Shown here piece after piece: positions 3,170 through 53,647 of a stretch of 64,000 bases of DNA. Position 1 is the first letter of the stretch. Each line of letters begins with the position of its first letter. The position numbers and the translations under genes were made by a program. The notes below the pieces were generated by a model. It worked only from the letters and a program-made list of their open reading frames with translations. It made no database searches and was not told where the DNA came from. The stretch lies in sequence record KF055347; one strand, 5' to 3'. Origin of the DNA: Escherichia phage JH2.

Positions 3170-3485
3170 GGTATTTCTCCAAGTTTCTTTTTAGATATAA
3201 CCAACCATAGTCAGTTCTTTCTACACCCATGAATAGTGGAGCCATCACAACTTTACCGAAAGTATTCCTGTGTTGGCAGATTTCAAAGGAATACTCTTTC
3301 TCGATATCAATCCCGTATTTGTACAGAACTGCTTTTAAAACTTGTTCATTATCCAGAAGTGTATCTGGAGTCTCACCATACTTCTCAAGTAACGGGTCAT
3401 ACATAAACACCGTCATAGAGATATTGTAGTTTGAGAAGTGGCTCTTCTGAGCCACAACCTCTTTATTAATGCTCTGTGAATCCAT
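3162..3485 (-). CDS. hypothetical protein
   Basis: ORF trimmed to ATG (MDSQS...) after AAGGGG. Confidence 0.45.
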   Translation of the reverse strand: MDSQSINKEVVAQKSHFSNYNISMTVFMYDPLLEKYGETPDTLLDNEQVLKAVLYKYGIDIEKEYSFEICQHRNTFGKVVMAPLFMGVERTDYGWLYLKRNLEKYRV

Positions 3486-4963: not shown

Positions 4964-5993
4964 TCATACACGGCTCCCAATTATATTTCTTAAAAGAGAA
5001 ATTATCTTTTGGATTTCTCTCTTGATATGCTACCCAGAAATGCTGCTCCATTAACTCTAATGGTGTTTTTGTAACAGTCTGTCCATCCCATGATACATAG
5101 GTATAAGACTCTTTTTTAGCATAGAGTTCATATATAGCGTCAAGACACTCTTTATAGGTCTCTTTACCATCTAAAGCATTCACCACAGCTACTTTTCCAG
5201 CACCTTTAAGGCCGAAGTAGTTGTCTGCATTATCTCCAGCAACAGCCTGATAACACAAGAATTTAAAACCTACACCAACTGTTTTTGCAGCTTTTGGTTT
5301 TGATTTGATAGGACAATCCCAGATATCACCAACATTATTATCAGCGATAAAAATTAGTGGTGATTTTTCATAAGTCATATCAATACAATAGGTTCCTTCA
5401 GCTTGTCGAAGGTCTTTGTCAATACTCATAAGAGCAGCTTTCTTACCCATCTTTTCAGCTTTAGCAATTACGATGGAATCGGCTTCGAAGCCTCCCTTTA
5501 AGAGCTTGAACTCTGGTCTGGATAAAAGATATTCACGACAAGCGACTAAGTGTGTTGGTGTGACAGCATCTTTACGGTTACCTTGATATTGGTGCTCAAG
5601 ACCTTTAATGTCTTTATGTTTATGCACACCCTTCTCTGTTAAGTAACCTACCCAAGTTCTTTCTTTACCAACAACCTTAAGCCATTCCTGAAGAACCTGC
5701 TGAGTAGCCATGATAGCTTCTTTTTCACTCTTAGCTTCTTTCCAAGTCTGCCTTTCCCATTCATCTTCATCAAATGTTAGACCAAGCTCTTCCACAAAGA
5801 TTCTCTGGTCTGCTAACCATCTTGCAGCATCTTTTGCATTATCAAATGGTTCAGATTCTTCTGCTGTGAGTTTATTGACGTATTTATATTTTGCTTTCTC
5901 AACTACACAAGCACCTTTATAGGCAATACTGTCAGAGTCAATAAAGACATGTGTAACTGAATCGGGAAGTTTTGTTAGTGTATACTTCTCCAT
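4953..5993 (-). CDS. 5'-3' exonuclease / flap endonuclease (RNase H-like, T5 D15 / T4 RNase H type)
   Basis: N-terminal VFIDSDSIAYKGA (FEN metal-site I) and VAGDNADNYFGLKGAGKVA (GDxSDN + H3TH-like) motifs; GGAGAG RBS. Confidence 0.6.
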   Translation of the reverse strand: MEKYTLTKLPDSVTHVFIDSDSIAYKGACVVEKAKYKYVNKLTAEESEPFDNAKDAARWLADQRIFVEELGLTFDEDEWERQTWKEAKSEKEAIMATQQVLQEWLKVVGKERTWVGYLTEKGVHKHKDIKGLEHQYQGNRKDAVTPTHLVACREYLLSRPEFKLLKGGFEADSIVIAKAEKMGKKAALMSIDKDLRQAEGTYCIDMTYEKSPLIFIADNNVGDIWDCPIKSKPKAAKTVGVGFKFLCYQAVAGDNADNYFGLKGAGKVAVVNALDGKETYKECLDAIYELYAKKESYTYVSWDGQTVTKTPLELMEQHFWVAYQERNPKDNFSFKKYNWEPCMNED

Positions 5994-6055
5994 TGTGACT
6001 CTCCATATGAAAAAGCCCCATACTAAGTACAGGGCTTTAAAGTAACTTTTAGAGA

Positions 6056-6913
6056 TTAGTCTTCTGTATCGAAGTCTTCATCTTCTTCGTCATCTGGGTC
6101 TGGCAAGTCTTCATCGTCACCATCATCAGAATCATTAGAAGGTTTGTGGTCTTTTGCGTCTTCTTCAGTGATTTCACCGTTATCTTCAACACCATCAAGA
6201 CCAAGCATAGCCAGTTCGTCTTCATCCAGTTCAGGTTCACCGTTAGCACCGTTACCACCAGTGTAAGGTACAAGGGTATCAATGATAAACTGTTCCTGAA
6301 TAGGTTTTGTCAGAACATTGTTCTCAAAAGTGTAGAAGTGAGTAGAAAGAATCACACTACCAAAAGAACCGTTACCGACTGCAATATCTGGATGAATTAC
6401 ATCATAGTTCTTGTCATCTTCATGTTTGTCAGATGCTTGAGCTTTGATTTTCTTCATCGGCTGTTTAACAGCTACACGCTTACCATTTACTTCTTCAATC
6501 AGCATTACAGGGAATGACTGTTTAGCTGTCCACACAGCACCATCTTTATAAGCTGCTGCACGACTTACTTTCAAGATGTGGTAAGTGTCTGCTTCAAATG
6601 GTGGTTTGCAACCAAACTTCTCTTCGAAGTCATCTGCATCAACTGCTTCAGTAGTAACTTTATCCCAACCTTCTGGGTTTTTCTTAGACTTAGTAAACTC
6701 TTTAAACAGCTTGTTACCATCCTCTGCCAGAATTGAAACACTGTAGTTACAATCTTTTCCTGGGAATTTCTTATCAATGGATTTACCTTTTGCCGGACGT
6801 GGTGAAGTGTTCAGGTAATAAAACCAAACATCTTTCAGCAGGTAACGCAGAGTTTGACGTTCAGTACCATTGTACTTCTCTACCGGGGCTTTCATTTTAA
6901 CAACTTTAGACAT
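6056..6913 (-). CDS. single-stranded DNA-binding protein (T7 gp2.5-like)
   Basis: 285 aa with extremely acidic C-terminal tail ending ...DEEDEDFDTED (aromatic near terminus), as in gp2.5-type SSBs; sits next to a T7-like primase-helicase. Confidence 0.55.
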   Translation of the reverse strand: MSKVVKMKAPVEKYNGTERQTLRYLLKDVWFYYLNTSPRPAKGKSIDKKFPGKDCNYSVSILAEDGNKLFKEFTKSKKNPEGWDKVTTEAVDADDFEEKFGCKPPFEADTYHILKVSRAAAYKDGAVWTAKQSFPVMLIEEVNGKRVAVKQPMKKIKAQASDKHEDDKNYDVIHPDIAVGNGSFGSVILSTHFYTFENNVLTKPIQEQFIIDTLVPYTGGNGANGEPELDEDELAMLGLDGVEDNGEITEEDAKDHKPSNDSDDGDDEDLPDPDDEEDEDFDTED

Positions 6914-6985
6914 TATTTAAACCTCTATCTCAATTTATGAAGAGTACCAATTCTAATTTGTTGATACTCTATTGTCAAACATTAA

Positions 6986-7135
6986 TTACTGGAAGTTGTG
7001 CTTATCTTTAGAAGCTGCTTTACGTGCAGTTTTTCCAGTTCTTACACGCTTCTCTTCATAGTATTTTGCTGGTTTACCAGCAGTGGCTTTTAAGGAATCC
7101 CCAAAAACTTTTTCAAATGCTTTAGAGTGTTTCAT
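6986..7135 (-). CDS. small basic hypothetical protein (49 aa)
   Basis: Not in the ORF track (<60 aa); ATG preceded by GGAGAATATC; its start overlaps the upstream stop as ATGA. Confidence 0.3.
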   Translation of the reverse strand: MKHSKAFEKVFGDSLKATAGKPAKYYEEKRVRTGKTARKAASKDKHNFQ

Positions 7136-7413
7136 GATATTCTCCGATATACTTGATATTCAAACCCATTTTCTTTAATTATAAACAGCCAACTAATATT
7201 ATGCTGAGGCAGTGTAATGATGACTGTAATCGTGCTTTGGTAGAAATCTTCTTTTATCTCAACTTCTCCATTGCATTTCATGAGGAGCATTCTATAGAAC
7301 CTATCAACCTTTGTCAAACACTCTTCATGAAATTTATTTAAACTTTTTTCTTCAAAGAAGGGTGTGAACCCCTCTCTTTTATAACTGTCACTCAGTTTCA
7401 AATGGGCAGTCAT
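7132..7413 (-). CDS. hypothetical protein
   Basis: ORF trimmed to Met (MTAHLKLSD...) after GAGGA. Confidence 0.4.
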   Translation of the reverse strand: MTAHLKLSDSYKREGFTPFFEEKSLNKFHEECLTKVDRFYRMLLMKCNGEVEIKEDFYQSTITVIITLPQHNISWLFIIKENGFEYQVYRRIS

Positions 7414-9373
7414 CTGCATCCTCACTTAATACGGGTGGAATCGTTGAGCTTTGACGCTGTTCTTCAGTATAGACTTCACCAGTCTCACGGTCAAACACTT
7501 CATCCTCATAATGAGGTAAAGAGTCATCATAATGGTCTTCAGCTTCACCAATGCCAAACTGTTGGCGAATATTTTCTGCTGCGCCATCAATGTCAACACC
7601 ACATCCCGAAGCTTTGATGAGGCGTCCTGTGTCTGGATTGTACCAAGTATGACCAGCGATACCTGTTGACTTACCATGACGACGACACTTAGTTAACTTG
7701 ATTTTTGTCAAGTTTTTCTTAACAGGGTCTGGGTCAACCTTGTTACGCATTAACAGAATGTTATTCATAGAAATCTGGAAATACGCACCAGAACCCTTAA
7801 TATCCTCTTCAGAAATATCCCCACCTTCAGAGTTAGCTTTCTGACCACCTGCACTCTTACGAACGTGACAGACGTTCACCTGTGCATACTGGTAGCGTTT
7901 GCAACGACGCAATAGCTCAGACAAAACTTCCTCTTCATCCGTATCTGAGCGTGACAGAGCCAACGTGATAGGGTCAAGAATGATAATCTTACAGTCTAAA
8001 CTGTTAACAAGATAGTCAACAAACTCCAGCAAATTATCTTGGTCAATTGCCCCTTGATGGTCAACGATATGTATACGACGGCCTTTAGACAGTTCTGCGT
8101 GTGCTTCCTTCAATTCATCCCAATCTCGTTCATCATAAGGAATCTCAGAAATCTGCTTGCTCAGGTGAATTGCACAGAGCATCTCCATCAACTCTTCATA
8201 GGTATCTTCAACTGGAATTACACCAATATTGTAATCGGTTTCCTTCCAAGCAGTGTAAATCATTTCACGGGTATATGCTGATTTACCTACTGAAGATGGT
8301 GCTGCCAGAGTTGTAATCTCACCTAAACCATAACCACCATAAGTCAACCTGTTCAAATCCCCGAAAGATTCTGGGAAAGGAATCAATGGAATCTGACCAC
8401 GATTCTTCATTGCCTCAAAACCATCTGCGAAGTTCTTGATACCAGCAGGGCAGTAACGAGGTGCGTTGTAGATACGCTGTTTAAATCCTTCCAGAACTGT
8501 GTCTTTCTCTTTATAGAACTTTGTCCACCATTCGTTAAGGTCTTTTACGCCTTCTGGATACTGGAATAAACGAACCTTCTCAATAGGTAGTATGCCAGCC
8601 GCCTCTTTGGTAGCTTTAGCACCTGCTTCATCGTTATCAAAGCACAAGTAAATCTCATCAAATGATGTGATGTACTGATAGTTGTCTTTGATGGACTTAA
8701 TGTTTGCACCTGATGGAACAGATACGTGACAGTAATTCTTACGACGAGACTTATCTTTAATCGCCAAAGAAGTCATGTAGATAGCTGTCGCACATTCCAT
8801 CTCACCTTCCCAGATGAACAGTCGGTTCCCACCTTCTGGAGCAATCCATGAACCGAACATTGCCAGTTCACCTTTAATATCTCCAACACCACCTGAAAAG
8901 TCTTTTAACTTACCACGTAGGTGTTCTTTTGGATGGTCTTCTGGGTAACGGTGACGAACACGATAACCAACATGTTCTAGCTTGCCATCTTCATTACGCT
9001 TGTAAGTCGGATAGAAATGTGCATCAATTTCACCGTCACTATCAATATCAACCTTGATACCTAAACGTTCAAGGACTTTTGCAGGAATCTTCCTATCTTT
9101 CAAGTCCATTGCTTCTAGGTTTTCTTTTACATCGTCTAAATCCATTCCACGGAAAGTACGGTTTTTATTATCTGAACCAGTAGAATAAGTGCTCACGATT
9201 TGTCCTTTATCAAAATCCCACTCTGGGAAACCTTTGTTACAACTAAAGCAAGTCATCGAATAAGAATCATCGTCATGATGGTAGATTGAACCAGCATCTG
9301 ATGAACCACAACGTGGACATGCACAATGACCAATAAACTGACCAGCCTCTTTCAATTTACGACCTTTAGACAT
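7388..9373 (-). CDS. DNA primase-helicase (T7 gp4-like)
   Basis: N-terminal Cys4 zinc ribbon (CACPRCGSSD...CFSCNKG), TOPRIM-like middle, C-terminal DnaB-type helicase with Walker A GLGEITTLAAPSSVGKS. Confidence 0.85.
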   Translation of the reverse strand: MSKGRKLKEAGQFIGHCACPRCGSSDAGSIYHHDDDSYSMTCFSCNKGFPEWDFDKGQIVSTYSTGSDNKNRTFRGMDLDDVKENLEAMDLKDRKIPAKVLERLGIKVDIDSDGEIDAHFYPTYKRNEDGKLEHVGYRVRHRYPEDHPKEHLRGKLKDFSGGVGDIKGELAMFGSWIAPEGGNRLFIWEGEMECATAIYMTSLAIKDKSRRKNYCHVSVPSGANIKSIKDNYQYITSFDEIYLCFDNDEAGAKATKEAAGILPIEKVRLFQYPEGVKDLNEWWTKFYKEKDTVLEGFKQRIYNAPRYCPAGIKNFADGFEAMKNRGQIPLIPFPESFGDLNRLTYGGYGLGEITTLAAPSSVGKSAYTREMIYTAWKETDYNIGVIPVEDTYEELMEMLCAIHLSKQISEIPYDERDWDELKEAHAELSKGRRIHIVDHQGAIDQDNLLEFVDYLVNSLDCKIIILDPITLALSRSDTDEEEVLSELLRRCKRYQYAQVNVCHVRKSAGGQKANSEGGDISEEDIKGSGAYFQISMNNILLMRNKVDPDPVKKNLTKIKLTKCRRHGKSTGIAGHTWYNPDTGRLIKASGCGVDIDGAAENIRQQFGIGEAEDHYDDSLPHYEDEVFDRETGEVYTEEQRQSSTIPPVLSEDADDCPFETE

Positions 9374-9566
9374 TAGCACCTCTTCGTTGTAGTTCTGCCT
9401 TCAATCCGTTTTCAATCTTGTCCAGTTCATGAATTTCATCTGCAATCTCTTTCCTTCGTGATTCAACTCTCTTAAGACGTTCAATCATTACCTCATTGGA
9501 AAGAGATGAGAGTTCCACTAAACGATGGTCAATAACTTTAAAATTATCTTTTACTCTCATCTTCAT
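9366..9566 (-). CDS. hypothetical coiled-coil protein
   Basis: 66 aa ORF directly upstream of the primase-helicase gene. Confidence 0.4.
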   Translation of the reverse strand: MKMRVKDNFKVIDHRLVELSSLSNEVMIERLKRVESRRKEIADEIHELDKIENGLKAELQRRGANV

Positions 9567-45710: not shown

Positions 45711-45738
45711 CCTTAAAAAAGACGGCACAGAGACCGTC
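45711..45738 (-). terminator. rho-independent terminator-like hairpin at 3' end of tRNA array (minus strand)
   Basis: Minus-strand hairpin GACGGUCUCUGUGCCGUC followed by UUUUUUAAGG. Confidence 0.5.
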
Positions 45739-45900: not shown

Positions 45901-45976
45901 TGGAGAATCCGAAGGGACTCGAACCCTTATAAACCTGTTTTGCAGACAGGCACATATCCATTTCTGTCACGGATTC
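45901..45976 (-). tRNA. tRNA-Cys (anticodon GCA)
   Basis: Cloverleaf read by eye: CCA encoded, T-arm AAGGG/CCCTT with TTCGAGT loop, anticodon loop CUGCAAA, acceptor 7 bp. Confidence 0.7.
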
Positions 45977-45980
45977 AAAT

Positions 45981-46073
45981 TGGAGGAAGATACCAGACTT
46001 GAACTGGTACACCGATTTCTCAGCTACTGGCAGTTTAGCAAACTGCTCCCTTACCTTTTAGGGTTAATCTTCC
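45981..46073 (-). tRNA. tRNA-Ser (anticodon GCT), long variable arm
   Basis: T-arm ACCAG/CTGGT, anticodon arm GCAGT-UUGCUAA-ACUGC, ~21-nt variable arm, perfect 7-bp acceptor. Confidence 0.7.
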
Positions 46074-46074
46074 A

Positions 46075-46809
46075 TTATTTCTGTAATGCGTTCTTCATTT
46101 CTGGTGTTGCAATAGTGTCAATCACACCAGTTTTACAAGCATCATCAAACCAGTCTGGTAAGATACCTGCTAAGAACCCATTGATATTCGTTTTAAGGTA
46201 CTCTGCAATAAGGGCAGCTTCTTCTTCAATCATCTGCACAACTTCATCTGCATAAGCTGTAATCTTTGAGATACCTTCATTAATCTTGCTAACAGCTTGG
46301 TTAGCTAAATCAGAAATAGTATCAAGACCTTCATCAATAGCATCTTGTAAGTCACTTAATACACCATTAACACCATCTAGTGCGCTGTTAATTGTGTCAA
46401 TAGCTTTTTGACCATACTCTGTAGCAACACCCATAATACCACTAAATGGTGTACAACCGACTTGCTCTCCTGCTGCACCCATAACATTGGAATACCCCTT
46501 TGCTACCTGCATACGTGATGAAAACTCATCAATAGACTTTTGACCATAGTCTGTTAGGGTCTTAGTAGTTGCTGTAGTGCTTGTAAGGCTTGTTGTAAAG
46601 CTGTTTAGAAGGGCTGTTGTGAGTCCAGCAGCAACAAGTTTATCCTTTATTGTAGGGTCTGCTACAGAGCTAATAGAGCTTACAAGTGATGTAGAGGCAG
46701 CTACGGTTCCACCGAGAACTGCTGCACCAGTAATAAGGGGATTAGAAAACCCTCTACCGGTTTTTAAGAGATTAAAAATCTCCTTACCTTGTTCTGTCAT
46801 CTCTTTCAT
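46075..46809 (-). CDS. hypothetical Ala/Ser/Thr-rich protein embedded in tRNA array
   Basis: ORF trimmed to MKEMTEQ... after AAAGGTG to avoid overlapping the upstream tRNA. Confidence 0.5.
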   Translation of the reverse strand: MKEMTEQGKEIFNLLKTGRGFSNPLITGAAVLGGTVAASTSLVSSISSVADPTIKDKLVAAGLTTALLNSFTTSLTSTTATTKTLTDYGQKSIDEFSSRMQVAKGYSNVMGAAGEQVGCTPFSGIMGVATEYGQKAIDTINSALDGVNGVLSDLQDAIDEGLDTISDLANQAVSKINEGISKITAYADEVVQMIEEEAALIAEYLKTNINGFLAGILPDWFDDACKTGVIDTIATPEMKNALQK

Positions 46810-46825
46810 TAAGCACCTTTGAAAT

Positions 46826-46902
46826 TGGTAGTCCAGTGGGATTTGAACCCTCTTCTCATGTTTTTCAGACACGCGCTTTAACCATATAAGCTACTTGGAC
46901 TG
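46826..46902 (-). tRNA. tRNA-Phe (anticodon GAA)
   Basis: Anticodon arm CGUGU-CUGAAAA-ACAUG; T-loop UUCAAAU; T-stem and acceptor each carry one mismatch, ends approximate. Confidence 0.6.
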
Positions 46903-46907
46903 TAAAT

Positions 46908-46983
46908 TGGGGTGACCTACGGGATTTGAACCCGTATAGACCATGTTCACAGCATGGGTCATTACCTTTTATGATAAGGCCAC
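46908..46983 (-). tRNA. tRNA-His (anticodon GTG)
   Basis: Perfect T-arm ACGGG/CCCGU, anticodon loop with GUG, 76 nt. Confidence 0.7.
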
Positions 46984-47014
46984 ATTTAAGGACTCTCGTA
47001 AGAACCCTTAGAAG

Positions 47015-47090
47015 TGGCAGCGGCATAAGGATTTGAACCTTAATAAGACAGCTTCAGAGACTGCTGCATTGCCAGTTATGCTATACCGCT
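47015..47090 (-). tRNA. tRNA-Gln (anticodon CTG)
   Basis: T-arm TAAGG/CCTTA, D-arm GCAT/ATGC, anticodon stem with two G.U pairs, loop CUCUGAA. Confidence 0.6.
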
Positions 47091-47095
47091 AAATT

Positions 47096-47174
47096 TGGTA
47101 CTCCATATCGGATTCGAACCGATACATAACACAGATTTTAAGTCTGGCCTCTCTGCCAATTGGAGTAATGGAGC
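47096..47174 (-). tRNA. tRNA-Leu (anticodon TAA), atypical short variable region
   Basis: Perfect T-arm; anticodon loop CUUAAAA; ~7-nt variable region instead of a long arm, so identity is tentative. Confidence 0.5.
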
Positions 47175-47176
47175 AT

Positions 47177-47252
47177 TGGCGGGGGATGTTGGAATTGAAC
47201 CAACTTCTTCGATTTCAAAGACCGAGGTTTTAACCTTGTAAACTAATCCCCT
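47177..47252 (-). tRNA. tRNA-Gln (anticodon TTG)
   Basis: Perfect T-arm GTTGG/CCAAC; anticodon loop CUUUGAA. Confidence 0.6.
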
Positions 47253-47260
47253 TTAAATCT

Positions 47261-47818
47261 TTACTTTCTCAGTGGATGAATAAAGAATGCCAACATAACT
47301 CTTTCCCTTGAGAATGCTCTTTCTTCTGGGACAACACTTTTTAGTTTCCACCCAACATAAATTCTCCAGTAAAATTGTTTACCAAAGACTTTGATTGATG
47401 GGACAAAAGCGAATAATCCCCAAGCATTGCTGTTCCACATTAGGAGATAACCAGTCTGATTATCTTCAGGGTCAGAACTTACGTTGATATTACCTTTCCA
47501 CTTAGTAACATCTTTTACATCTCTTCCTAATACATGGTAAGAGAAGTTATAAGCTTTGTTTCTCCAGAGCCATCCAACTCTCTGCAAATAGACACCAAGC
47601 TTACCAATCTTTCTAATCTTAGCCCATCGTTTAATGTGACCTTCATCACCATCAATAGGGTTGTCATATGTCTCCATCCATCTGAATCCAAAAGGTAGAT
47701 GTCCTTTCTTCTCACTATAGAATGGAACTACAAAAGGTGCTAAGATAACTGCTAAGGTTGCTGCCAATGGGTCTAACAAAGCTAGGAAAATCCATGAAGC
47801 ATACTTCAAATATCTCAT
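47261..47818 (-). CDS. hypothetical membrane protein embedded in tRNA array
   Basis: 185 aa, N-terminal TM helices (WIFLALLDPLAATLAVILAPFVVPF); AAGAGG RBS. Confidence 0.5.
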   Translation of the reverse strand: MRYLKYASWIFLALLDPLAATLAVILAPFVVPFYSEKKGHLPFGFRWMETYDNPIDGDEGHIKRWAKIRKIGKLGVYLQRVGWLWRNKAYNFSYHVLGRDVKDVTKWKGNINVSSDPEDNQTGYLLMWNSNAWGLFAFVPSIKVFGKQFYWRIYVGWKLKSVVPEERAFSRERVMLAFFIHPLRK

Positions 47819-47830
47819 TTAAATAGCCTC

Positions 47831-47906
47831 TTTAAATTGGTGCAGGATAAGGGATTCGAACCCCTATTAACAGCTTCGTAGACTGTTGCTCTATCCATTT
47901 GAACTA
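47831..47906 (-). tRNA. tRNA-Arg (anticodon ACG)
   Basis: T-arm with TTCGAAT loop; anticodon loop CUACGAA; acceptor 7 bp. Confidence 0.65.
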
Positions 47907-47911
47907 ATCCT

Positions 47912-47989
47912 GCAAAATTGGTGTTCCAAGACGGATTCGAACCGTCACTAATACAAGGTTTGAGCTTGCATCCTCTGCCAATTGGGATA
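47912..47989 (-). tRNA. tRNA-Leu (anticodon CAA), atypical short variable region
   Basis: Perfect T-arm GACGG/CCGTC; anticodon loop CUCAAAC; 78 nt without long extra arm. Confidence 0.5.
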
Positions 47990-47990
47990 C

Positions 47991-48065
47991 TGGAACGTGG
48001 TACTCACTAAAGGACTTGAACCTTTTTCTTCATCTTGTAAGGGTGATGTTTTACCATATAAACTA
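47991..48065 (-). tRNA. tRNA-Val (anticodon TAC)
   Basis: Perfect T-arm AAAGG/CCTTT; anticodon loop CUUACAA. Confidence 0.65.
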
Positions 48066-48160
48066 AGCGAGTATGAAAGAGGTCTGAAGTTGTGCCGCTA
48101 ACTCAACTCCGTGGAATTTGTTACGGTCTTCAGTTGACACCAGCGGTCTTTCACTTGACC

Positions 48161-48236
48161 TCTGAATTGGTGCTCCCACAAGGATTCGAACCCTGATAAG
48201 TTGCTTACAAGGCAACCGTAATAGCCAATTATACGA
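48161..48236 (-). tRNA. tRNA-Thr (anticodon TGT)
   Basis: Perfect anticodon stem GTTGC/GCAAC; loop CUUGUAA. Confidence 0.7.
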
Positions 48237-48243
48237 TAGGAGC

Positions 48244-48318
48244 ATTAATTTGGAGCATCCAGAGGGAATCGAACCCTCAACCTCAGTTTGGAAGACTGTA
48301 ATTTTCCCGTTTAAACTA
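48244..48318 (-). tRNA. tRNA-Gly (anticodon TCC)
   Basis: Perfect T-arm GAGGG/CCCTC and perfect acceptor GCATCCA/TGGATGC; anticodon loop CUUCCAA. Confidence 0.7.
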
Positions 48319-48324
48319 TGGATG

Positions 48325-48400
48325 CACTAATTGGTGGAGTCACTGAGAATTGAACTCAGTTCCCGAGTTTGCAAAACTCGAATTTTAACCATATAAACTA
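48325..48400 (-). tRNA. tRNA-Ala (anticodon TGC)
   Basis: Perfect T-arm CTGAG/CTCAG and anticodon stem CGAGT/ACTCG; loop UUUGCAA. Confidence 0.7.
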
Positions 48401-48406
48401 TGACCC

Positions 48407-48482
48407 CAATGTTTGGTGCAGGTGGAGGGAATTGAACCCATCGTCTTACTGATTAAGAGTCAGCCGCATAACCATTTTGCTA
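48407..48482 (-). tRNA. tRNA-Lys (anticodon CTT)
   Basis: Perfect acceptor GCAGGTG/CACCTGC; anticodon loop CUCUUAA; weak T-stem; paralog of the tRNA at 49729. Confidence 0.6.
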
Positions 48483-48489
48483 CACCTGC

Positions 48490-48567
48490 ATTAATTTGGT
48501 AGGAGACAAGGGATTCGAACCCTCAAACACCAACTTCTAAGGATGGTAGGTTTACCAATTACCGTCA
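48490..48567 (-). tRNA. tRNA-Leu (anticodon TAG), atypical
   Basis: T-arm AAGGG/CCCTC; anticodon loop CUUAGAA; acceptor pairing needs 2 extra nt near the D-arm; no long variable arm. Confidence 0.5.
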
Positions 48568-48829
48568 ATCTCCCATTAAATCTTTTTAGAGAACTTCTAA
48601 GAACCTAAGCAACAAGGTTCCACAACAAGCTGTAATAACCTTAGAAGCCCTCTAAAAAGACCTAAATTGGTCTTTGCATAGTCTTGTTTAATCCGGTGAC
48701 TAGAACCTTTGGAGAGCTTGATATTATCTCTTCTCCGTGACACCTACTAGGTGCTTTATCAGTGTGTACGACAATACACGAGGGATACCAAAGCAACATC
48801 CGAATGAAGCTTGGCTTTAAATCTTATTA

Positions 48830-48919
48830 GGCGGTAAGTAAAGGAGTCGAACCCTCACCGTATCTCTACAGTGGCAACAGTTTTCAAGACTGTTTGGCTG
48901 CCATTAGCCGCTACCTACC
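48830..48919 (-). tRNA. tRNA-Ser (anticodon TGA), long variable arm
   Basis: Perfect anticodon stem ACAGT/ACTGT with loop CUUGAAA; ~20-nt variable arm; CCA only partly encoded. Confidence 0.6.
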
Positions 48920-48932
48920 CCTAATAAGACTT

Positions 48933-49015
48933 TGGCATGGGACGGAGGAGTTGAACCCCTTTGAAACGGTTTTGGAGGCCGTTGCTCATGCCTTAGAGTC
49001 TTAACATCGTCCCAC
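48933..49015 (-). tRNA. tRNA-Trp (anticodon CCA), with ~7 extra nt between D-arm and acceptor
   Basis: Anticodon arm ACGGC-CUCCAAA-ACCGU; acceptor strands pair only if the gene is ~83 nt. Confidence 0.5.
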
Positions 49016-49157
49016 ACTATAATTCGAAGCTTACCGTATTTTCGCAACACTGTAAAGCCCCTTCTCAGATTATTTACATGTTCTGGAAAACATGAGATAC
49101 AGACCACCTCCTTACACGGAGACCCGATAAGGTCGTCTAAGCAATCTGCTAACTATT

Positions 49158-49234
49158 TGGCACACCCTACAGGATTCGAACCTGTAACTCAATGATTAGA
49201 AGTCATTTGCTCTGTCCAGTTGAACTAAGGGTGC
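49158..49234 (-). tRNA. tRNA-Arg (anticodon TCT)
   Basis: Perfect T-arm ACAGG/CCTGT and anticodon stem AATGA/TCATT; loop CUUCUAA. Confidence 0.7.
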
Positions 49235-49570
49235 ATTAATCTTTAAAGACTCTCTTAGAAAGCCCTTAAAGATGCCCACCTTATTAATCATACCGTGGGC
49301 GAGTACGCCAAATTCTTTGATGAGGGATTGGAAGACCTCACTGGTGTTTAGCCTATCAAGCTACTGCCAGAAAAACATTGTCGTTTGCATTTATTTTAAA
49401 TTTGCAAAATAGACGCTACGCAACGAAAACTATTCAGAATATGTACAACAAATTTCCCCACATTGTGTTACGTCTAACGCTCATGTATTGGTGTTTGAAT
49501 TATACATATTATGAAGTATTTTAGTTACTATAAAGTGGTCACATCTCAATGTCAACAACTTTATTGAAAT

Positions 49571-49645
49571 TGGTTGTAGGTGAGGGTATCGAACCCTCTT
49601 CTAACGGTTATCAGCCGTTTGCATTACCATTTATGCTAACCCACA
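49571..49645 (-). tRNA. tRNA-Ile (anticodon GAT)
   Basis: Perfect T-arm GAGGG/CCCTC and anticodon stem AACGG/CCGTT; loop CUGAUAA. Confidence 0.7.
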
Positions 49646-49647
49646 AT

Positions 49648-49724
49648 TGGAGGTTCAGATGGGAATCGAACCCACATTCATAGGGCTTATGAAACCCTTG
49701 CATTACCTTATCTGCGACTGAACC
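49648..49724 (-). tRNA. tRNA-Met (anticodon CAT)
   Basis: Perfect acceptor GGTTCAG/CTGAACC; anticodon loop UUCAUAA. Confidence 0.6.
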
Positions 49725-49728
49725 ATAT

Positions 49729-49804
49729 TGGTAGAAGTGGAGGGATTCGAACCCATCGCCTGTCAGATTAAAAGTCTGCCGCATCACCATTCTGCTACAC
49801 TTCC
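49729..49804 (-). tRNA. tRNA-Lys (anticodon TTT)
   Basis: Paralog of the tRNA at 48407 with the same atypical T-stem; anticodon loop CUUUUAA. Confidence 0.6.
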
Positions 49805-49810
49805 ATTAAA

Positions 49811-49950
49811 TTATCTTTGTAGATAAGCTACCCAGACTTGCTTAAGGTCTGTAGCGATGTGCTTTGTTGGGTTTAAATCTAGAATTTACCCTTTCACCCT
49901 TTGTGGTCGCATACTCACAGGTAAGCTTAATAACTTATCTACAAAGATAA
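49811..49950 (-). ncRNA. candidate structured ncRNA closed by a perfect 17-bp long-range stem
   Basis: TTATCTTTGTAGATAAG (49811-49827) is the exact reverse complement of CTTATCTACAAAGATAA (49934-49950), enclosing 106 nt with internal hairpins; no ORF or tRNA. Confidence 0.35.
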
Positions 49951-49953
49951 TTA

Positions 49954-50084
49954 CCAGACCGTTGTTTATCATCTTAAGTGCTACCATTACACCAACTCGA
50001 CATCTGCCGAGTGAAGGAATCGAACCTTCGCCTTTTCTTTACCGAGAAATAGATTGTTTAAGTTTTGCTGTAAACGGTCTTCTG
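49954..50084 (-). ncRNA. candidate Y RNA-like ncRNA with circularly permuted tRNA-like module (YrlA-type)
   Basis: Minus-strand RNA: closing stem CAGAAGACCGUU...AACGGUCUGG; internal canonical T-arm GAAGG-UUCGAUU-CCUUC; acceptor-like stem CUCGGC-AGAU-GUCGAG capped by a tetraloop; D-arm-like GUG-UAAUGGUAG-CAC; no anticodon arm. Confidence 0.45.
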
Positions 50085-50097
50085 TAAATTTGTTGAG

Positions 50098-50174
50098 CCA
50101 GACCAAGTTTTAAATTTTTTCAAAATTAAATTGGCTTGAAAATATCATACGTACTTGCTGAATTTGGTCTTCTG
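50098..50174 (-). ncRNA. structured intergenic element with the same closing stem (CCAGACC / GGTCTTCTG family)
   Basis: Terminal inverted repeat CCAGACCAA ... TTGGTCTTCTG as in the 49954-50084 element; AT-rich interior. Confidence 0.3.
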
Positions 50175-50261
50175 CTCCTTTAAAGAATACTCGTAAGAAC
50201 TCTTTAAGGGAGGGGCTAAATAGCCCTCTCAAAACATCATCTTGAAATACTTATTATAATT

Positions 50262-50339
50262 TGGCGGTTACGAAGGGATTTGAACCCTCATCATCTCCCG
50301 TGACAGGGGAGTATTTTAACCAGATTAAACTACATAACC
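50262..50339 (-). tRNA. tRNA-Asp (anticodon GTC)
   Basis: Perfect anticodon stem CTCCC/GGGAG; loop CUGUCAC. Confidence 0.65.
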
Positions 50340-50345
50340 TTTATT

Positions 50346-50433
50346 TGGTGTGCCGTGTAGGAGTCGAACCTACCGAGTCTCAATGACAAGGGATTTACAG
50401 TCCCCACCGCTACCATCTACGGGATAACGACAC
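50346..50433 (-). tRNA. tRNA-Tyr (anticodon GTA), long variable arm
   Basis: Perfect T-arm GTAGG/CCTAC; anticodon loop CUGUAAA; ~15-nt variable arm. Confidence 0.6.
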
Positions 50434-50493
50434 ATTTTATTTTCTATTCAGGCTAAGGACTTGCACCTTACAAATCGGTGAGCAATCGCTTCT

Positions 50494-50570
50494 CTCCTAA
50501 ATTTGGCGGTTAGTCAGGGATTCGAACCCTGTGCCATTCGCTTAACAGGCGACCGCACATACCTTATGTG
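50494..50570 (-). tRNA. tRNA-Asn (anticodon GTT)
   Basis: Perfect T-arm CAGGG/CCCTG; anticodon loop CUGUUAA. Confidence 0.65.
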
Positions 50571-50591
50571 CTTCCTAACCTTAATACATTG

Positions 50592-50651
50592 CCAGACCGT
50601 GTTTTTTCTTTTATCCGCAAAAAGTAGTTTGTTGCTGCATACGGTCTTCTG
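50592..50651 (-). ncRNA. structured intergenic element (CCAGACC / GGTCTTCTG family)
   Basis: GCCAGACCGT ... ACGGTCTTCTG terminal inverted repeat enclosing ~45 nt with an internal hairpin. Confidence 0.3.
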
Positions 50652-50657
50652 CAAAAT

Positions 50658-50733
50658 TGGAGGCGGGTGCAGGAGTCGAACCTGCCGATACCATGCTAAT
50701 GAGACATGTGAGACGCCCTTTCTCTATACCCGC
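50658..50733 (-). tRNA. tRNA with CAT anticodon (Met, initiator or Ile-lysidine type); unusual U37
   Basis: Perfect T-arm GCAGG/CCTGC, D-arm GAGA/TCTC, anticodon loop CUCAUUA. Confidence 0.5.
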
Positions 50734-50745
50734 AATTCTTAATGA

Positions 50746-50818
50746 CCAGACCAAATCTCTTCTTTGTCCGATTTATCTTCAGATGAATAAGATTAAGTTT
50801 GCTGTAATTGGTCTTCTG
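50746..50818 (-). ncRNA. structured intergenic element (CCAGACC / GGTCTTCTG family)
   Basis: CCAGACCAA ... TTGGTCTTCTG terminal inverted repeat as in the other three family members. Confidence 0.3.
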
Positions 50819-50825
50819 TCAAAAC

Positions 50826-50903
50826 TGGCGTTCCAGAAGGGATTTGAACCCTCAAATATCCACTTTGAAAGAGTGGTGACTTTACCATTTTGTCTACTGG
50901 AAC
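50826..50903 (-). tRNA. tRNA-Glu (anticodon TTC)
   Basis: Perfect anticodon stem CCACT/AGTGG with loop CUUUCAA; perfect acceptor GTTCCAG/CTGGAAC. Confidence 0.65.
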
Positions 50904-50910
50904 ATTAATT

Positions 50911-50987
50911 TGGTCTCTGTTGGAGGACTTGAACCTCCGGCCTTACCGCCCCAAACGGAACGCTCTACCAAGCTGAGCTAAACAGAG
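50911..50987 (-). tRNA. tRNA-Pro (anticodon TGG)
   Basis: Perfect T-arm GGAGG/CCTCC and perfect acceptor; anticodon loop UUUGGGG. Confidence 0.65.
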
Positions 50988-51104
50988 ATAAACTTTTCAA
51001 ACTCTATGTAACCACTTTAACATTATTTTTTAGTGGTTGTCAAGAACTTTTTTAAAATATTTTTCAGTATCTTAGAAAAGCTCTCATTTCGTTTCTATGT
51101 AGAA

Positions 51105-51133
51105 CATATTAAAGGGTATCAAACACATTGTCA
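51105..51133 (-). promoter_or_regulatory. sigma70-type promoter heading the tRNA array (TTGACA - 17 nt - TAATAT)
   Basis: Minus strand: TTGACA (plus 51128-51133), 17-nt spacer, TAATAT (plus 51105-51110); the -35 sits in the loop of an inverted repeat AGGGTAT/ATACCCT. Confidence 0.45.
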
Positions 51134-51152
51134 ATACCCTTTTTAAAACTTT

Positions 51153-52568
51153 TTACCAGATGTAACGGTCAATCATTACTGCTTTGAGCATTACGCTGAT
51201 TGGGTCAAACTTCTCACCACCAAGCAGAGCTTTTAAAGTGGCTGGAGAAAACCCTGATACCATTGCTACACCATTATCCTTAACAGACACTTCGCAAGTA
51301 CCATTACGGTTTGCTAAGTACCAGAATACTAGTTGTGGCATTTCATATCCAGCTTTTTTGTACTTACTCTGAATTGCTTCAAAGTTTGTACGACCGTTAG
51401 CTCCATCAACCTGATTGAACTCCATATCGGAGAAGATGATAAGCTTACTTGGCATATCTTTCTGAGTCAAGTTGTTTCTCTTACCTATTTCAAGAATACG
51501 GTCAAAAGCTGCTTGTAAGTTAGTTGAACCATATTCAACATGACGCATTACCTGACGATGACGGTTTCGTAAATCGCCACTCAGTTCAATGAAGTGAGGG
51601 TTTGTTGAATAAACCATTAACTCATTCTTAAAGCAGCCTGTATTGCGTTCTGCTACATACAAGGCAAGTGATACACCAATATCAAGGGCAGTGATTGAAC
51701 CAAGATTCACCCAAGACATTGAGCTTGAAACATCAGTCATACACAAGATGTTTTCACCTTCTGCCATCCAGTTTGGTAGTGCTTTCCACTGCTCATTAGC
51801 AACATCTGCATTACCATACTTAATAGATTTAATCACATCGTATGGGTAAACAGCACCAGCGTTAATCTTAGCCTCACCTTTTGAGAGTGACTCGATGTAA
51901 GCTTTGTAACGTTCCCCATCTTTACGGTTAAAGAGCTTTTGGTAACGCGCAGCAGCGAGTGAAGGAATCTTGCTGTAGTCAATCTTACCAAACTCATTAG
52001 CAGAGATTTTTTGCTCAACCGTATCAGACAGTGCAGATAACAGTGTGCGATACTCCTTCTCGCTTAAGTTTGCAAACTTACAGAAACGTTTTACAAACTG
52101 TTTGTGGCGTGGTTTTACTCGTGGTAACCACTTAGCTGCTAAACCTGCTGTTGCAGGGTCTAGTAATGCTGCTTCTAAATGTTTGAAGGCGTCTGTCTCA
52201 AAACGAGTACCTACGAAGATTTTGAAGTCATCAAAACGACCAAGCTCTGCAATCTTATCCATAATGCGAAGAACCTGTGTAGGTTCTAAAACCTTATCTT
52301 CAATCGCTTGAAGTAAAACAGTTCGGAAAGCTTTACGCTCACCCATACCTTCTCGTACATCTCGCATATGCAGTAAAATACGAACTGCAACATCAACATC
52401 CTCACGCAAAGCTTTGTAGAACAGGTCTGGTAAGATTTCTACATTGCTACGGCTTGAGCCAGCGGCTTTGTAAAAGTCTACCAGAGCAGACATTGATGAA
52501 GTATGGTTTACAGCACCATTTTCAGTTCGACCTGCATGAAGGTGCGCATGTTTAAATAACTCGCTCAT
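51153..52568 (-). CDS. Ro60/Rsr-like protein (TROVE-like helical N-domain + vWA domain with MIDAS motif)
   Basis: C-terminal vWA with MIDAS DVSSSM (human Ro60 DVSASM, recalled) and LIIFSDMEF (VFIVFTDNETF); upstream GERKAFRTVLLQAI and VYPYDVIKSIKYG resemble Ro60 TROVE segments; GAGAAGAGAG RBS. Confidence 0.55.
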   Translation of the reverse strand: MSELFKHAHLHAGRTENGAVNHTSSMSALVDFYKAAGSSRSNVEILPDLFYKALREDVDVAVRILLHMRDVREGMGERKAFRTVLLQAIEDKVLEPTQVLRIMDKIAELGRFDDFKIFVGTRFETDAFKHLEAALLDPATAGLAAKWLPRVKPRHKQFVKRFCKFANLSEKEYRTLLSALSDTVEQKISANEFGKIDYSKIPSLAAARYQKLFNRKDGERYKAYIESLSKGEAKINAGAVYPYDVIKSIKYGNADVANEQWKALPNWMAEGENILCMTDVSSSMSWVNLGSITALDIGVSLALYVAERNTGCFKNELMVYSTNPHFIELSGDLRNRHRQVMRHVEYGSTNLQAAFDRILEIGKRNNLTQKDMPSKLIIFSDMEFNQVDGANGRTNFEAIQSKYKKAGYEMPQLVFWYLANRNGTCEVSVKDNGVAMVSGFSPATLKALLGGEKFDPISVMLKAVMIDRYIW

Positions 52569-52649: not shown

Positions 52650-53021
52650 TTATTTTTTGAGAGTCGCTACAGCAGAGAACGTTGGTTTGTTATCTGTCTG
52701 TTGTTGACCACCATTATCAGGAGTCTTCTTAGTGTCTGCTGCAAGTGCTTTCATCTCACCTGCTGAGTGAGTAAAGATAGTTTTACCGACCTCAATCATG
52801 CTCTTGATGGTTACGTCATCTGTGTTTAACCCGAACTCTGCAAGCTTAGCAGCGTCCCTTGTAACAATCGCCTCAAACAGCTTTGCAGCGAACTCAGCAG
52901 AATTATCAATGGTCAGTTGAGCTTTTACGAGTGAGCTTTTGTTACGAGAACCTTTTGGTCTTCCAGATGGGTTACCAGACTGGCCTTTTTTAAACTGGCC
53001 TTTGTTTGTTCTGTTTTTCAT
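52650..53021 (-). CDS. putative DNA-binding protein (possible small terminase subunit)
   Basis: Basic N-terminus with GQSGNPSGRPKGSRNK, a motif common in phage small-terminase-like proteins; first gene of the rightward-region minus operon. Confidence 0.4.
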   Translation of the reverse strand: MKNRTNKGQFKKGQSGNPSGRPKGSRNKSSLVKAQLTIDNSAEFAAKLFEAIVTRDAAKLAEFGLNTDDVTIKSMIEVGKTIFTHSAGEMKALAADTKKTPDNGGQQQTDNKPTFSAVATLKK

Positions 53022-53270
53022 TGGTATGCCTCTTATAAGACCTCTTAAAAGGCTTTTAAGATAAAAGATAGATATCCAGAAAGATATCTGTTTAAATAGC
53101 CTTTTTAGAGGAACCTTTTAAGTTATCTTCTAAGTATTTATAAGCCTACACCTTGTCAAGTCCTTTGTCAACAACTTTTTTAACTTGCAATAGTTCTTGA
53201 CTTGTTGTATGGATTACTGTACCATCTTACTTAAAGCTGTAGGTCTGCCTTGTTCTACAAAGGAGACTTA

Positions 53271-53432
53271 ATGAGAAAATCAAACAACCCGAAGAAAGGT
53301 AAAAATACCAATCACTGTAAGGAATCAAAAAGGGTAGAGTTACTCTACTATTCATCCTCTGAAATTGGTCTGTACCTGTTCTTTCAAAATTACAGAAGAC
53401 AAGAGGATTATCTATGTGTAGTTCCCAATTAG
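53271..53432 (+). CDS. hypothetical small protein
   Basis: ATG after AAGGAGA; overlaps next ORF start by ~19 nt, so uncertain. Confidence 0.3.
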   Translation: MRKSNNPKKGKNTNHCKESKRVELLYYSSSEIGLYLFFQNYRRQEDYLCVVPN

Positions 53433-53647
53433 AAATCGCAGATATTATAGATTTATATAAAACTGCAAAGAGTCATGGCTATATAACCTCAATTGGAAAG
53501 AATAGTCACTACGATGCTTTGACTGGAATGTATTTCAGGGCAATGGCTCAATCTAGTGAACAACACTTAATGGTTTCTTCCAGTGAGTTTACTTCGTTTC
53601 TCTATTGCAGCAAAATCATAAATCGCAGGAGAACTGAAAAATGTTAA
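53414..53647 (+). CDS. hypothetical protein
   Basis: 77 aa ORF, GAGGA RBS. Confidence 0.4.
   Translation: MCSSQLEIADIIDLYKTAKSHGYITSIGKNSHYDALTGMYFRAMAQSSEQHLMVSSSEFTSFLYCSKIINRRRTEKC

Follow-up and report, generated by a model that had tools for sequence, protein, structure and literature searches.

Ribonucleoprotein (RNP) particles of Ro60 and Y RNAs are conserved from bacteria to humans, and their function in bacteria is still poorly defined. Phages carry Ro60–Y RNA modules as well, known from mycobacteriophages, a few jumbo phages and the Thermus phage phiLo. In phage T4, the tRNA cluster contains the stable RNAs species 1 and 2 (rnaC and rnaD), which are co-transcribed with the tRNAs and released by tRNA-processing enzymes, and to our knowledge no Ro-like gene adjoins this cluster. 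The systems from which we argue by analogy are the Rsr–Y RNA–PNPase (polynucleotide phosphorylase) particles of Deinococcus and Salmonella, the rsr-yrlBA-rtcBA repair operon and the Ro60–Yrl–PNPase complex of phiLo (PMC4201824, PMC7790460, PMC12135203); phage TROVE proteins are viewed as RNA-repair platforms (PMC7824862). Here we analyse a 64,000-nucleotide (nt) stretch of Escherichia phage JH2 (sequence record KF055347), hereafter the window, with a focus on its tRNA array (45901–50987) and the protein gene upstream of it (51153–52568); both lie on the minus strand, as does every other feature of the window described below. Sequence comparison and structure prediction together point to a Ro/Y-RNA particle in phages of E. 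coli and Salmonella, in which the protein is a predicted Ro60 and four elements between the tRNA genes, E1 to E4, are putative Y RNAs. Such a particle is undescribed in the literature searched, whose coverage is incomplete and in which we found no paper linking Felix O1-type phages or the DUF2828 protein family with Y RNAs.

A sequence search with the 5.8-kb stretch around the array returned 403 phage records, 197 of them at 95–99% identity and nearly all of these from Felix O1-like myoviruses of Escherichia, Salmonella and Shigella (Ounavirinae: Felixounavirus); by sequence, the window is that of a Felix O1-type Felixounavirus. Relatives share the gene order terminase, small open reading frame (ORF), tRNA cluster with two embedded ORFs and 471-amino-acid gene, the last of which is named hypothetical, vWFA, DUF2828 or 'RNA-binding protein' in annotated records. 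In the window this gene encodes 471 amino acids in which Pfam recognizes DUF2828, DUF7788 and a sub-threshold VWA_2 domain. An AlphaFold2 model built on an alignment of 35 sequences (A1) has a mean predicted local distance difference test score (pLDDT) of 88.8 and a predicted template modelling score (pTM) of 0.88. Searched with Foldseek against PDB structures, the model retrieves Ro60/TROVE proteins as all of its nine best matches, over the full length, with E values of 2e-8 to 1e-6 and template modelling (TM) scores of 0.55–0.66; these include phage phiLo Ro60 (9kop), Xenopus Ro60 with Y RNA or misfolded RNA and human Ro60, and the matches ranked below the nine cover the von Willebrand factor A (vWA) domain only. 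The predicted model has the arrangement that defines Ro60/TROVE proteins, a ring of HEAT repeats followed by a vWA domain that carries a MIDAS (metal ion-dependent adhesion site), and the MIDAS motif DxSxS is intact, with D279-x-S281-x-S283, T349 and D381 invariant across the 35 sequences. On this modelling evidence, gene 51153–52568 folds as Ro60. Homologues occur in 708 phage records (tblastn), including mycobacteriophage proteins that are annotated 'Ro-like RNA binding protein' and match at 31–34% identity over the full length, and others from P100-like Listeria phages and from Vibrio, Aeromonas, Enterococcus, Staphylococcus and Campylobacter phages. In every Ounavirinae-like locus examined, the Ro-like gene follows a DUF5681 gene (52650–53021 in the window), and the two genes form the start of a leftward unit beside a divergent intergenic region (53021–53641).

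Downstream of the protein gene, on the same strand and starting 330–1,070 nt from it, lie the four E elements. The minus-strand motif AGAAGACC-N4–9-CAGCAA occurs in four copies where 0.02 are expected, and each copy has a GGUCUGG partner 45–115 nt further downstream. The two halves enclose a common fold, in which an outer stem of 4 base pairs (bp) is followed by a 3-nt AGA bulge opposite a bulged G and by an inner stem of 7–8 bp, AGACCRN/NYGGUCU, that begins A-G, ends C-U and leads into a single-stranded (U)NCAGCAA. The outer stems differ in sequence from copy to copy and yet always pair: UGAC/GUCA in E1 (50743–50821; inner stem AGACCAA/UUGGUCU, loop motif UUACAGCAA), UUGC/GCAA in E2 (50589–50654), GAGC/GCUC in E3 (50095–50177) and UUAC/GUAA in the longer, YrlA-like E4 (49951–50087). 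E1 occupies the gap between tRNA-Glu and a CAT-anticodon tRNA and E2 that between the CAT tRNA and tRNA-Asn, with the tRNA ends 3–7 nt away. In an alignment of 17 short elements, paralogues and orthologues from five phage lineages with the badly aligned L091_c left out, 99.5% of cells pair and 8 of the 11 pairs have changed on both sides, a result matched by none of 500 shuffles; slid controls pair in 19–46% of cells. We built a covariance model, R1, from the short elements only, so that E4 lay outside the training set. In the window it finds exactly E1 to E4, with 63.4 bits for E1 (a training sequence), 74.7 bits for E3 and 49.9 bits (E 1e-8) for E4. Judged by covariation and position, E1–E4 are paralogous, putative Y-RNA-like genes.

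E4 carries the most informative structure. Within its bulged stem a V hairpin comes first. The T arm, GAAGG-UUCGAUU-CCUUC, is next, followed by an acceptor-like hairpin of 7 bp; U and G then precede the last element, a D arm of sequence GUGU-AAUGGUA-GCAC. The nucleotides of the tRNA elbow are all present (U8, A14, R15, G18G19, A21 and a GUUCGAnUC T loop). The same order of V, T arm, acceptor-like stem-loop and D arm, with conserved elbow nucleotides, defines YrlA (PMC4201824), and the Rfam YrlA consensus has its arms in the order seen in E4. We aligned E4 orthologues from Ounavirinae with three elements of Klebsiella phage KP13-16, one of locus L013 and one of mycobacteriophage Samty (A4), keeping the badly aligned L013_b, which lowers the paired fraction. 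In this alignment 19 of 28 pairs have changed on both sides and none of 500 shuffles does as well. The acceptor-like helix is 96.8% paired with all seven of its pairs changed on both sides, the T stem is 100% paired, and the T, acceptor-like and D helices together are 85–100% paired with two-sided changes in 12 of 16 pairs. A further 4-bp 'anticodon-stem equivalent' (CUUA/UAAG) was dropped as it is not conserved in SUSP2 or Sf19. With the Rfam YrlA model itself, matches reach 39.7 bits in the elements of KP13-16 and 37.9 bits in those of Samty, significant values that fall below the gathering score of 69. The E bulge resembles that of YrlA in geometry, with 3 nt bulged after a C, and differs in sequence, and like bacterial YrlA genes, which are expected within 4 kb of a Ro60 orthologue on its strand (PMC4201824), E1–E4 lie close to the Ro60-fold gene and on the same strand. 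Its arm order and covariation make E4 a YrlA-type tRNA mimic, although it fails the curated family model. In Citrobacter phage Mordin (L004), ARAGORN calls a 'permuted tmRNA*' (transfer-messenger RNA) at 5060–5809 that starts within the E4 orthologue; this call is probably an artefact of the permuted T-arm, acceptor and D-arm module, and 'permuted tmRNA' calls in phage annotations may mark YrlA-like genes.

We searched both strands of the window and of 82 loci carrying protein homologues (labelled L###; 1.0 Mb in all) for E elements. At E ≤ 1, R1 reports 48 matches, none of which lies on the strand opposite the DUF2828 gene. Of the 21 matches at E ≤ 0.01 that come from loci outside the Ounavirinae, 14 are within 600 nt of the gene, and 5 more lie in or beside tRNA genes. 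A strict descriptor (outer stem, bulge, inner stem starting AGR, CAGCAA, inner stem ending YCU, then G) gives 50 sense and 8 antisense matches against 2 in shuffled sequence, and all 8 antisense matches fall in two loci that are stored reversed; it replaced a loose structural descriptor whose 240 sense and 131 antisense matches included many false positives. By eye, Listeria phage WIL-1 has three E-type copies directly upstream of its gene (ACAGCAAUUAC), mycobacteriophage Samty has two directly downstream, one of them with a T arm, and Yersinia phage P778 has E-type elements inside its array, with pairs GG...CC and bulge A. In KP13-16 the gene is followed by five E-type elements, three of them with tRNA-like modules, and then by 13 tRNAs. 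Outside the Felix group, 42 loci together hold some 200 called tRNA and tmRNA genes; all of these lie on the DUF2828 strand, many in arrays that directly follow the gene, and RNA ligases occur at several loci (RtcB in WIL-1, Rnl2 in Aeromonas phage LAh_6). For a P100-like Listeria phage, three unexplained transcripts of very high abundance were reported from the 2 kb upstream of its homologue, with Y RNAs among the suggested explanations (PMC12282133); these are consistent with the elements described here and may be the same RNAs.

Several of these loci hold other RNA genes. WIL-1 (L089; features at 1929–2480, 3120–3390 and 6308–7519) combines a ROOL RNA match of 87 bits (gathering score 99.1), tRNAs and the three CAGCAA elements upstream of the DUF2828 gene with an RtcB 'tRNA splicing ligase' gene downstream of it. 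In the IMG/VR contigs L036, L038 and L040 a tmRNA lies on the DUF2828 strand 4–6 kb downstream, in L032 one lies about 3.3 kb upstream on that strand, and KP13-16 (L006) has a partial tmRNA-like match at 9390–9465. L091 (8560–8790) and L092 (9965–10240) carry a tRNA-like gene, GCGGGUGUAGUU...GGUUCGA...CCCGCA, with a large internal insertion and flanked by GAGCUUUAG and CUAAAGGUAGC, which is absent from the window.

From the gene content, the RNA structures drawn from covariation, the predicted protein fold and the genomic linkage we propose a single leftward operon of the Ro60-fold gene, E1–E4 as Y RNAs and the tRNAs, in which the E RNAs form RNPs with the Ro60-like protein; we give this reading a probability of roughly 0.65. 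The operon would begin with the Ro60-fold gene, and host-type promoters would drive 26 standard tRNA genes, a tRNATrp-like gene and E1–E4. How the E RNAs are processed, what they bind and what they do we infer. The enzymes responsible for maturing the tRNAs on either side would also excise the E RNAs from the polycistronic precursor, with one end made by RNase P at the 5′ end of the next tRNA and the other by 3′ trimming after the previous CCA; as E1 and E2 lie within 3–7 nt of tRNA ends, maturation of their neighbours would release them. The E RNAs would then bind the Ro60-like protein through the bulged stem, and the RNP would act on structured, misfolded, cleaved or damaged RNA during infection. 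Analogy suggests that it probably handles structured, misfolded or cleaved RNA, and its likeliest role would be surveillance, repair or nuclease control directed at the atypical tRNAs of the phage or at host RNAs.

The part of this model where an alternative survives best is the Trp-like gene at 48933–49015. As drawn by comparative alignment, it has a GUGGGAC/GUCCCAU acceptor stem, G73, an encoded CCA, a 3-bp D stem, a 5-bp anticodon stem with the loop C-CUCCAAA-A and a GGGG/CCUC T arm; for the acceptor and T stems, a division into 8 + 4 bp is the better reading. The sequence-only reading, which gave this array 27 tRNA genes covering all 20 amino acids, had noted that its Trp candidate needs extra nucleotides, and the stretch joining the acceptor and D stems, 2 nt long in tRNAs, is here an invariant connector of 10 nt, GAUGUUAAGA. 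The anticodon loop can be drawn with 9 nt or, if a C.A or C.C mismatch closes it, with 7. These features fit an RNA that does not decode, whether a decaying pseudogene or a tRNA mimic acting as a decoy or as a ligand of Ro or RNase P, which would leave the array with 19 amino acids. ARAGORN makes no call at its default, 90% or 85% thresholds, offers an implausible alternative fold at 80% and 70%, and makes no Trp call even with introns allowed, and the sole Rfam match is to the tRNA-Sec model (23 bits, E 0.41). No GenBank record or paper annotates the gene, the published count for phage Sf14 being 19 amino acids (PMC12482277). In L091 its acceptor stem is degenerate, and Shigella phage Sf19 (L005) lacks the gene altogether. 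In its place Sf19 has an endonuclease ORF (5900–6304), and homing endonucleases have seemingly inserted at several points in the arrays of relatives.

The comparative record speaks against simple decay. Suspvirus, Mooglevirus, Yersinia phage P778 and two metagenomic relatives all conserve the Trp-like sequence, and in their alignment (A5) 96.9% of cloverleaf cells are paired and eight pairs have changed on both sides, which none of 500 shuffles matches; slid controls pair in 37–55%. The anticodon stem moves from AACGG/CCGUU through GUAAG/CUUAC to GUAGG/CCUAC, so that four of its five pairs co-vary across genera as far as P778, and RNAalifold independently recovers the identical cloverleaf helices. 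An alternative D-arm pairing, ATG/CAT, was rejected as unsupported in P778. Throughout, the gene keeps the CCA anticodon, U33, A37, G73 and the 3′ CCA; G73 and the CCA anticodon are determinants of E. coli tryptophanyl-tRNA synthetase. Because its cloverleaf co-varies around a conserved CCA anticodon, the Trp-like gene is, on comparative grounds, a selected RNA and not a decayed pseudogene. That it nevertheless does not decode, most plausibly as a mimic, we regard as close to an even chance, and of the 27 genes and 20 amino acids first proposed, 26 genes and 19 amino acids are called by detectors, whereas the last of each hangs on this conserved CCA-anticodon cloverleaf, which no detector calls. 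The gene bears on why standard annotation leaves these phages without a tRNATrp.

Several observations weigh against reading E1–E4 and the upstream protein as a Ro/Y-RNA system. In the protein Pfam finds no TROVE match, and neither the sequence itself nor the 35-member profile retrieves a Ro60 from PDB sequences (phmmer, hmmsearch); its Ro60 nature rests on the predicted fold, because it is the fold search and not the sequence searches that finds Ro60. In the RNAs, a 181-nt slice containing E4 has no match to the Rfam YrlA model (RF02553) even at E ≤ 10, and the published motif of putative Rsr contact, GNCGAAN0-1G, does not occur in the E elements, whose 5′ strand reads NNNC-AGA-AGACC. E1–E3 taken alone have poor thermodynamic z-scores (−1.1 to −1.6), and as the covariation comes partly from paralogues and close relatives, the cell counts overstate the number of evolutionary events. 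Hairpins this short between tRNAs might also be mere processing signals. Developed fully, this last point becomes the main rival, in which the E elements would be cis-acting processing or insulator hairpins (guides for RNase E, RNase III or RNase P) that are degraded after cleavage, have no role in trans and are unconnected with the upstream protein. Their position exactly between tRNAs, 3–7 nt from mature ends, the weak minimum free energy (MFE) z-scores of E1–E3 and the presence in the array of other long hairpins of likely processing function would all suit such an account. We nonetheless consider it improbable, because it leaves unexplained an unpaired CAGCAA motif that is more conserved than the stems around it, a complete co-varying tRNA-like module in the E4 class for which a processing signal has no need, and the recurrence of the bulge geometry with CAGCAA beside DUF2828 genes that have no flanking tRNA (for example WIL-1, L079, L037, L039, L041, L019 and L066).

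A second account retains the RNAs and reassigns the protein, making DUF2828 a vWA/HEAT protein with a non-RNA function that stands beside RNA genes through synteny conserved in one lineage. The missing sequence-level similarity to TROVE is compatible with it, as is the status of the database names 'RNA-binding protein' and 'Ro-like', which are untested annotations. Set against these are the whole-model structural matches, which are to Ro60 structures only, and the recurrence of the linkage to CAGCAA-type RNAs and same-strand tRNA and tmRNA genes in many metagenomic contigs and in unrelated phages whose hosts are Enterobacteria, Aeromonas, Listeria and Mycobacterium; we judge this account less probable still than processing hairpins. 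The best-supported reading is a Ro-type RNP operon joined to a tRNA operon, from which the Ro60-fold protein and its Y-like RNAs would be made along with the partly atypical tRNAs of the phage.

Four TTGACA-type leftward promoters, recognized by consensus match only, stand at 52637, 51134, 51043 and 49555. Two of these candidates are sigma-70-like sites between the Ro-like gene and tRNA-Pro, TTGACA-N17-TAATAT at 51106–51134 and TTGACA-N18-TAAAGT with a TG at 51014–51043, directly upstream of tRNA-Pro. An internal one, TTGACA-N17-TATAGT at 49527–49555, has 11 of 12 consensus matches and is, by its sequence, probably the same site as Felix O1 P45, TTGACA(17)TATAGT (PMC3185647). A terminator-like hairpin with a T run follows the last tRNA (45721–45738; consensus match only). 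The sequence-only reading suspected noncoding RNAs and internal promoters in the long spacers 48568–48829 and 49235–49570. These spacers are structured, with hairpin z-scores of −3.7 to −3.9, and the guess was correct, though not mainly for these two spacers: no RNA family is recognized in their long hairpins, and the Y-RNA-like genes lie at 49951–50177 and 50589–50821.

Two further spacers stand out. S3, 146 nt between E4 and tRNA-Lys (49805–49950), has an MFE of −46.4 kcal/mol (z −5.7) and a 22-bp closing stem; it matches nothing in Rfam. Both the closing stem and an inner hairpin have undergone compensatory changes in the relatives SUSP2, Mordin, Sf19 and L090, by which S3 is a further conserved structured RNA. 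S4, 95 nt between tRNA-Thr and tRNA-Val (48073–48167), is a folded spacer that is near-invariant across Felixounavirus, Suspvirus and Mooglevirus, and within it CUGAAGACCGUAAC looks like the 5′ half of an E element; the covariance model gives no match on S4. Long hairpins of the type UUAAAG...CUUUAA, one of them with about 28 bp, recur directly upstream of tRNAs or E elements at about 50178–50210, 49239–49273, 46985–47013 and 48576–48665, and these may be RNase III-type processing sites.

The three tRNALeu genes (TAG, 48497–48574; CAA, 47919–47996; TAA, 47096–47174) depart from textbook structure in another way. At 78–79 nt including CCA, they have variable regions of 5–7 nt against 15 nt in E. 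coli leuW, and all three thus lack the stem-loop variable arm of more than 10 nt that marks bacterial class II tRNALeu, an arm that is universal in organisms and organelles except animal mitochondria (PMC9976931). Alignment with leuW shows the D stem of 3 bp and the D loop (AAUUGGYAGA) to be of E. coli type, and the three tRNAs retain A73, the A15:U48 Levitt pair, G18G19 and A20a, which are the determinants of E. coli leucyl-tRNA synthetase (LeuRS), for which the long arm is dispensable (PMC9976931). Leu is also the best tRNAscan-SE isotype score of the three Sf14 orthologues (PMC12482277). Short-arm Leu genes with the LeuRS identity elements occur as well in L013, KP13-16 (TAG isoacceptor) and P778. 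Because the LeuRS determinants are retained, several lineages conserve the form and isotype models favour Leu, these are most likely functional leucine tRNAs of unusual architecture, and on the same sequence features they are most likely charged by the host LeuRS. That they instead accept another amino acid, through mischarging or recoding, or do not function is the least likely of the alternatives, for although the long arm is otherwise missing only from animal mitochondrial tRNALeu (PMC9976931) and the Rfam tRNA scores are low (40–47.5 bits), the D stem, D loop and Leu identity elements around a dispensable arm, the isotype models for all three Sf14 orthologues and the persistence of the form across four phage lineages all speak for leucine.

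The two CAU tRNAs are harder to place, and alignment with E. coli ileX, metT and metZ leaves them ambiguous among Met, fMet and Ile2. The first (50658–50734; ARAGORN) has the acceptor GCGGG, a U1xC72 mismatch, A11:U24, the loop CUCAUUA with U37, as the sequence-only reading had it, and U73. It groups with genes of L013 and P778 that share the initiator-like GCGGG acceptor stem and the conserved CUCAUUA loop with U37; two of the three have a 1x72 mismatch, and the group has A11:U24 as in E. coli metZ without the three G-C pairs of the initiator anticodon stem. The second (49648–49724; ARAGORN, Rfam), also with U73, looks by sequence like an elongator Met or Ile2 type. The Sf14 orthologues of both score highest as Cys (PMC12482277).

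The array itself is already known, as it has been published for Felix O1, with 22 tRNAs of which two are flagged as pseudogenes and with a tRNA-Tyr labelled 'pseudo' by tRNAscan-SE (PMC3185647), and for Sf14, with 26 tRNAs covering 19 amino acids (PMC12482277). ARAGORN finds 26 tRNA genes between 45901 and 50987, all on the minus strand, and run as a check on the window it leaves the proposed anticodons and boundaries unchanged; they also agree with the tRNAscan-SE annotations of relatives, among them Sf19 with an identical set of 26 anticodons. The Rfam tRNA model (RF00005) scores 24 of the 26 at or above the gathering score of 29 bits, tRNA-Tyr and the CAT tRNA at 50658–50734 being found by ARAGORN only, and at gathering and permissive thresholds Rfam returns nothing in the array beyond tRNAs and chance matches. 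In addition to the Leu and CAT genes given above, in order of transcription the array comprises tRNA-Pro (TGG, 50911–50987), Glu (TTC, 50826–50903), Asn (GTT, 50504–50580), Tyr (GTA, 50346–50433), Asp (GTC, 50262–50339), Lys (TTT, 49729–49804), Ile (GAT, 49571–49645), Arg (TCT, 49158–49234), Ser (TGA, 48830–48919), Lys (CTT, 48414–48489), Ala (TGC, 48332–48407), Gly (TCC, 48251–48325), Thr (TGT, 48168–48243), Val (TAC, 47998–48072), Arg (ACG, 47838–47913), Gln (TTG, 47177–47252), Gln (CTG, 47015–47090), His (GTG, 46908–46983), Phe (GAA, 46826–46901), Ser (GCT, 45981–46073) and Cys (GCA, 45901–45976), which except for Tyr are called by both programs, as are the Leu genes.

The short variable regions of the Leu tRNAs and the long arms of Ser and Tyr noted earlier are real, as is the weakness of the T stem in both Lys tRNAs, which has only three G-C pairs. 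The two embedded protein genes likewise stand, and Pfam assigns them to DUF7338 (47261–47818, 185 amino acids) and DUF7217 (46075–46809, 244 amino acids). The CCA end is encoded in every ARAGORN tRNA except tRNA-Ser(TGA), which also has the lowest Rfam tRNA score of the array (31.1 bits). The array tRNAs would supply decoding capacity for an AT-rich genome and possibly give resistance to host tRNA-cleaving defences.

Taken at its widest, the reading would make DUF2828/DUF7788 a large unrecognized phage branch of Ro60 with its own bulged-stem CAGCAA class of Y RNAs, coupled to tRNA and tmRNA arrays, and would make the short-arm tRNALeu and insertion-bearing tRNATrp functional decoders; we hold this combined proposal as tentative, at somewhat less than even odds. 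The putative RNA class, as defined by sequence, has a stem starting A/G-G and ending C-U/C and occurs with or without a tRNA-like module. If the proposal is true, the branch spans phages of Enterobacteria, Vibrio, Aeromonas, Listeria and Mycobacterium; many large lytic phages would carry an RNP that surveys, repairs or shields their own tRNAs, with host anticodon nucleases as one possible threat; Ro/Y-RNA function would have a tractable model in Felix O1 and its E. coli relatives; and both unusual tRNAs would break textbook tRNA architecture. That distant phages have one RNA signature next to one protein family suggests a general and testable link between Ro RNPs and phage tRNAs. E. coli K-12 and Salmonella support growth of this phage family, and in these hosts genetics, crosslinking and immunoprecipitation (CLIP) and tRNA sequencing are routine. 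As natural experiments, the Trp-like gene and the Leu tRNAs with short arms probe the rules of tRNA identity.

Compared with known systems, the array as such is that of the Felix O1, wV8, Sf14 and Mordin clusters (Ounavirinae), with the same genes, order and flanks (terminase and DUF2828 gene) and without any difference from the present one; the Felix O1-like literature searched makes no mention of a Trp-like gene, of Leu tRNAs with short arms, of E elements or of a Ro-like neighbour. The Leu tRNAs share a variable region of 4–7 nt and A73 with animal mitochondrial tRNALeu (PMC9976931). Unlike the mitochondrial molecules, they keep the canonical bacterial D/T elbow and the E. coli-type D loop and are presumably served by the bacterial LeuRS of the host. 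The Ro-like half of the locus compares with the bacterial Rsr–YrlA/YrlB systems (Salmonella rsr-yrlBA-rtcBA, M. smegmatis and mycobacteriophages; RF02553), where, as here, several paralogous RNA genes stand within a few hundred nucleotides of a Ro60-fold gene on its strand. YrlA also shares with E4 the V-T-acceptor-D order, the elbow nucleotides and the bulged closing stem, in which a 3-nt bulge lies by a C-G pair (PMC4201824). The differences are that the phage protein is DUF2828/DUF7788 and not Pfam TROVE, that the closing stem of the E elements reads NNNC-AGA-AG...CU-G-GNNN with a conserved CAGCAA loop in place of GNCGAA, and that the phage RNAs number four and are embedded in a 27-gene tRNA array. 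In Thermus phage phiLo, too, a phage Ro60-fold protein has Y-like RNAs beside its gene (Yrl1 and Yrl2; PMC12135203; 9kop, 9L5Y), and 9kop is the best structural match to our Ro-like model at a sequence identity of 15%. The phiLo RNAs were chosen by their CGAA motif and lie outside any tRNA array, and for phiLo both binding and the complex with PNPase have been shown (PMC12135203), whereas for the Felix O1-type phages binding of the E RNAs is proposed by analogy with such particles.

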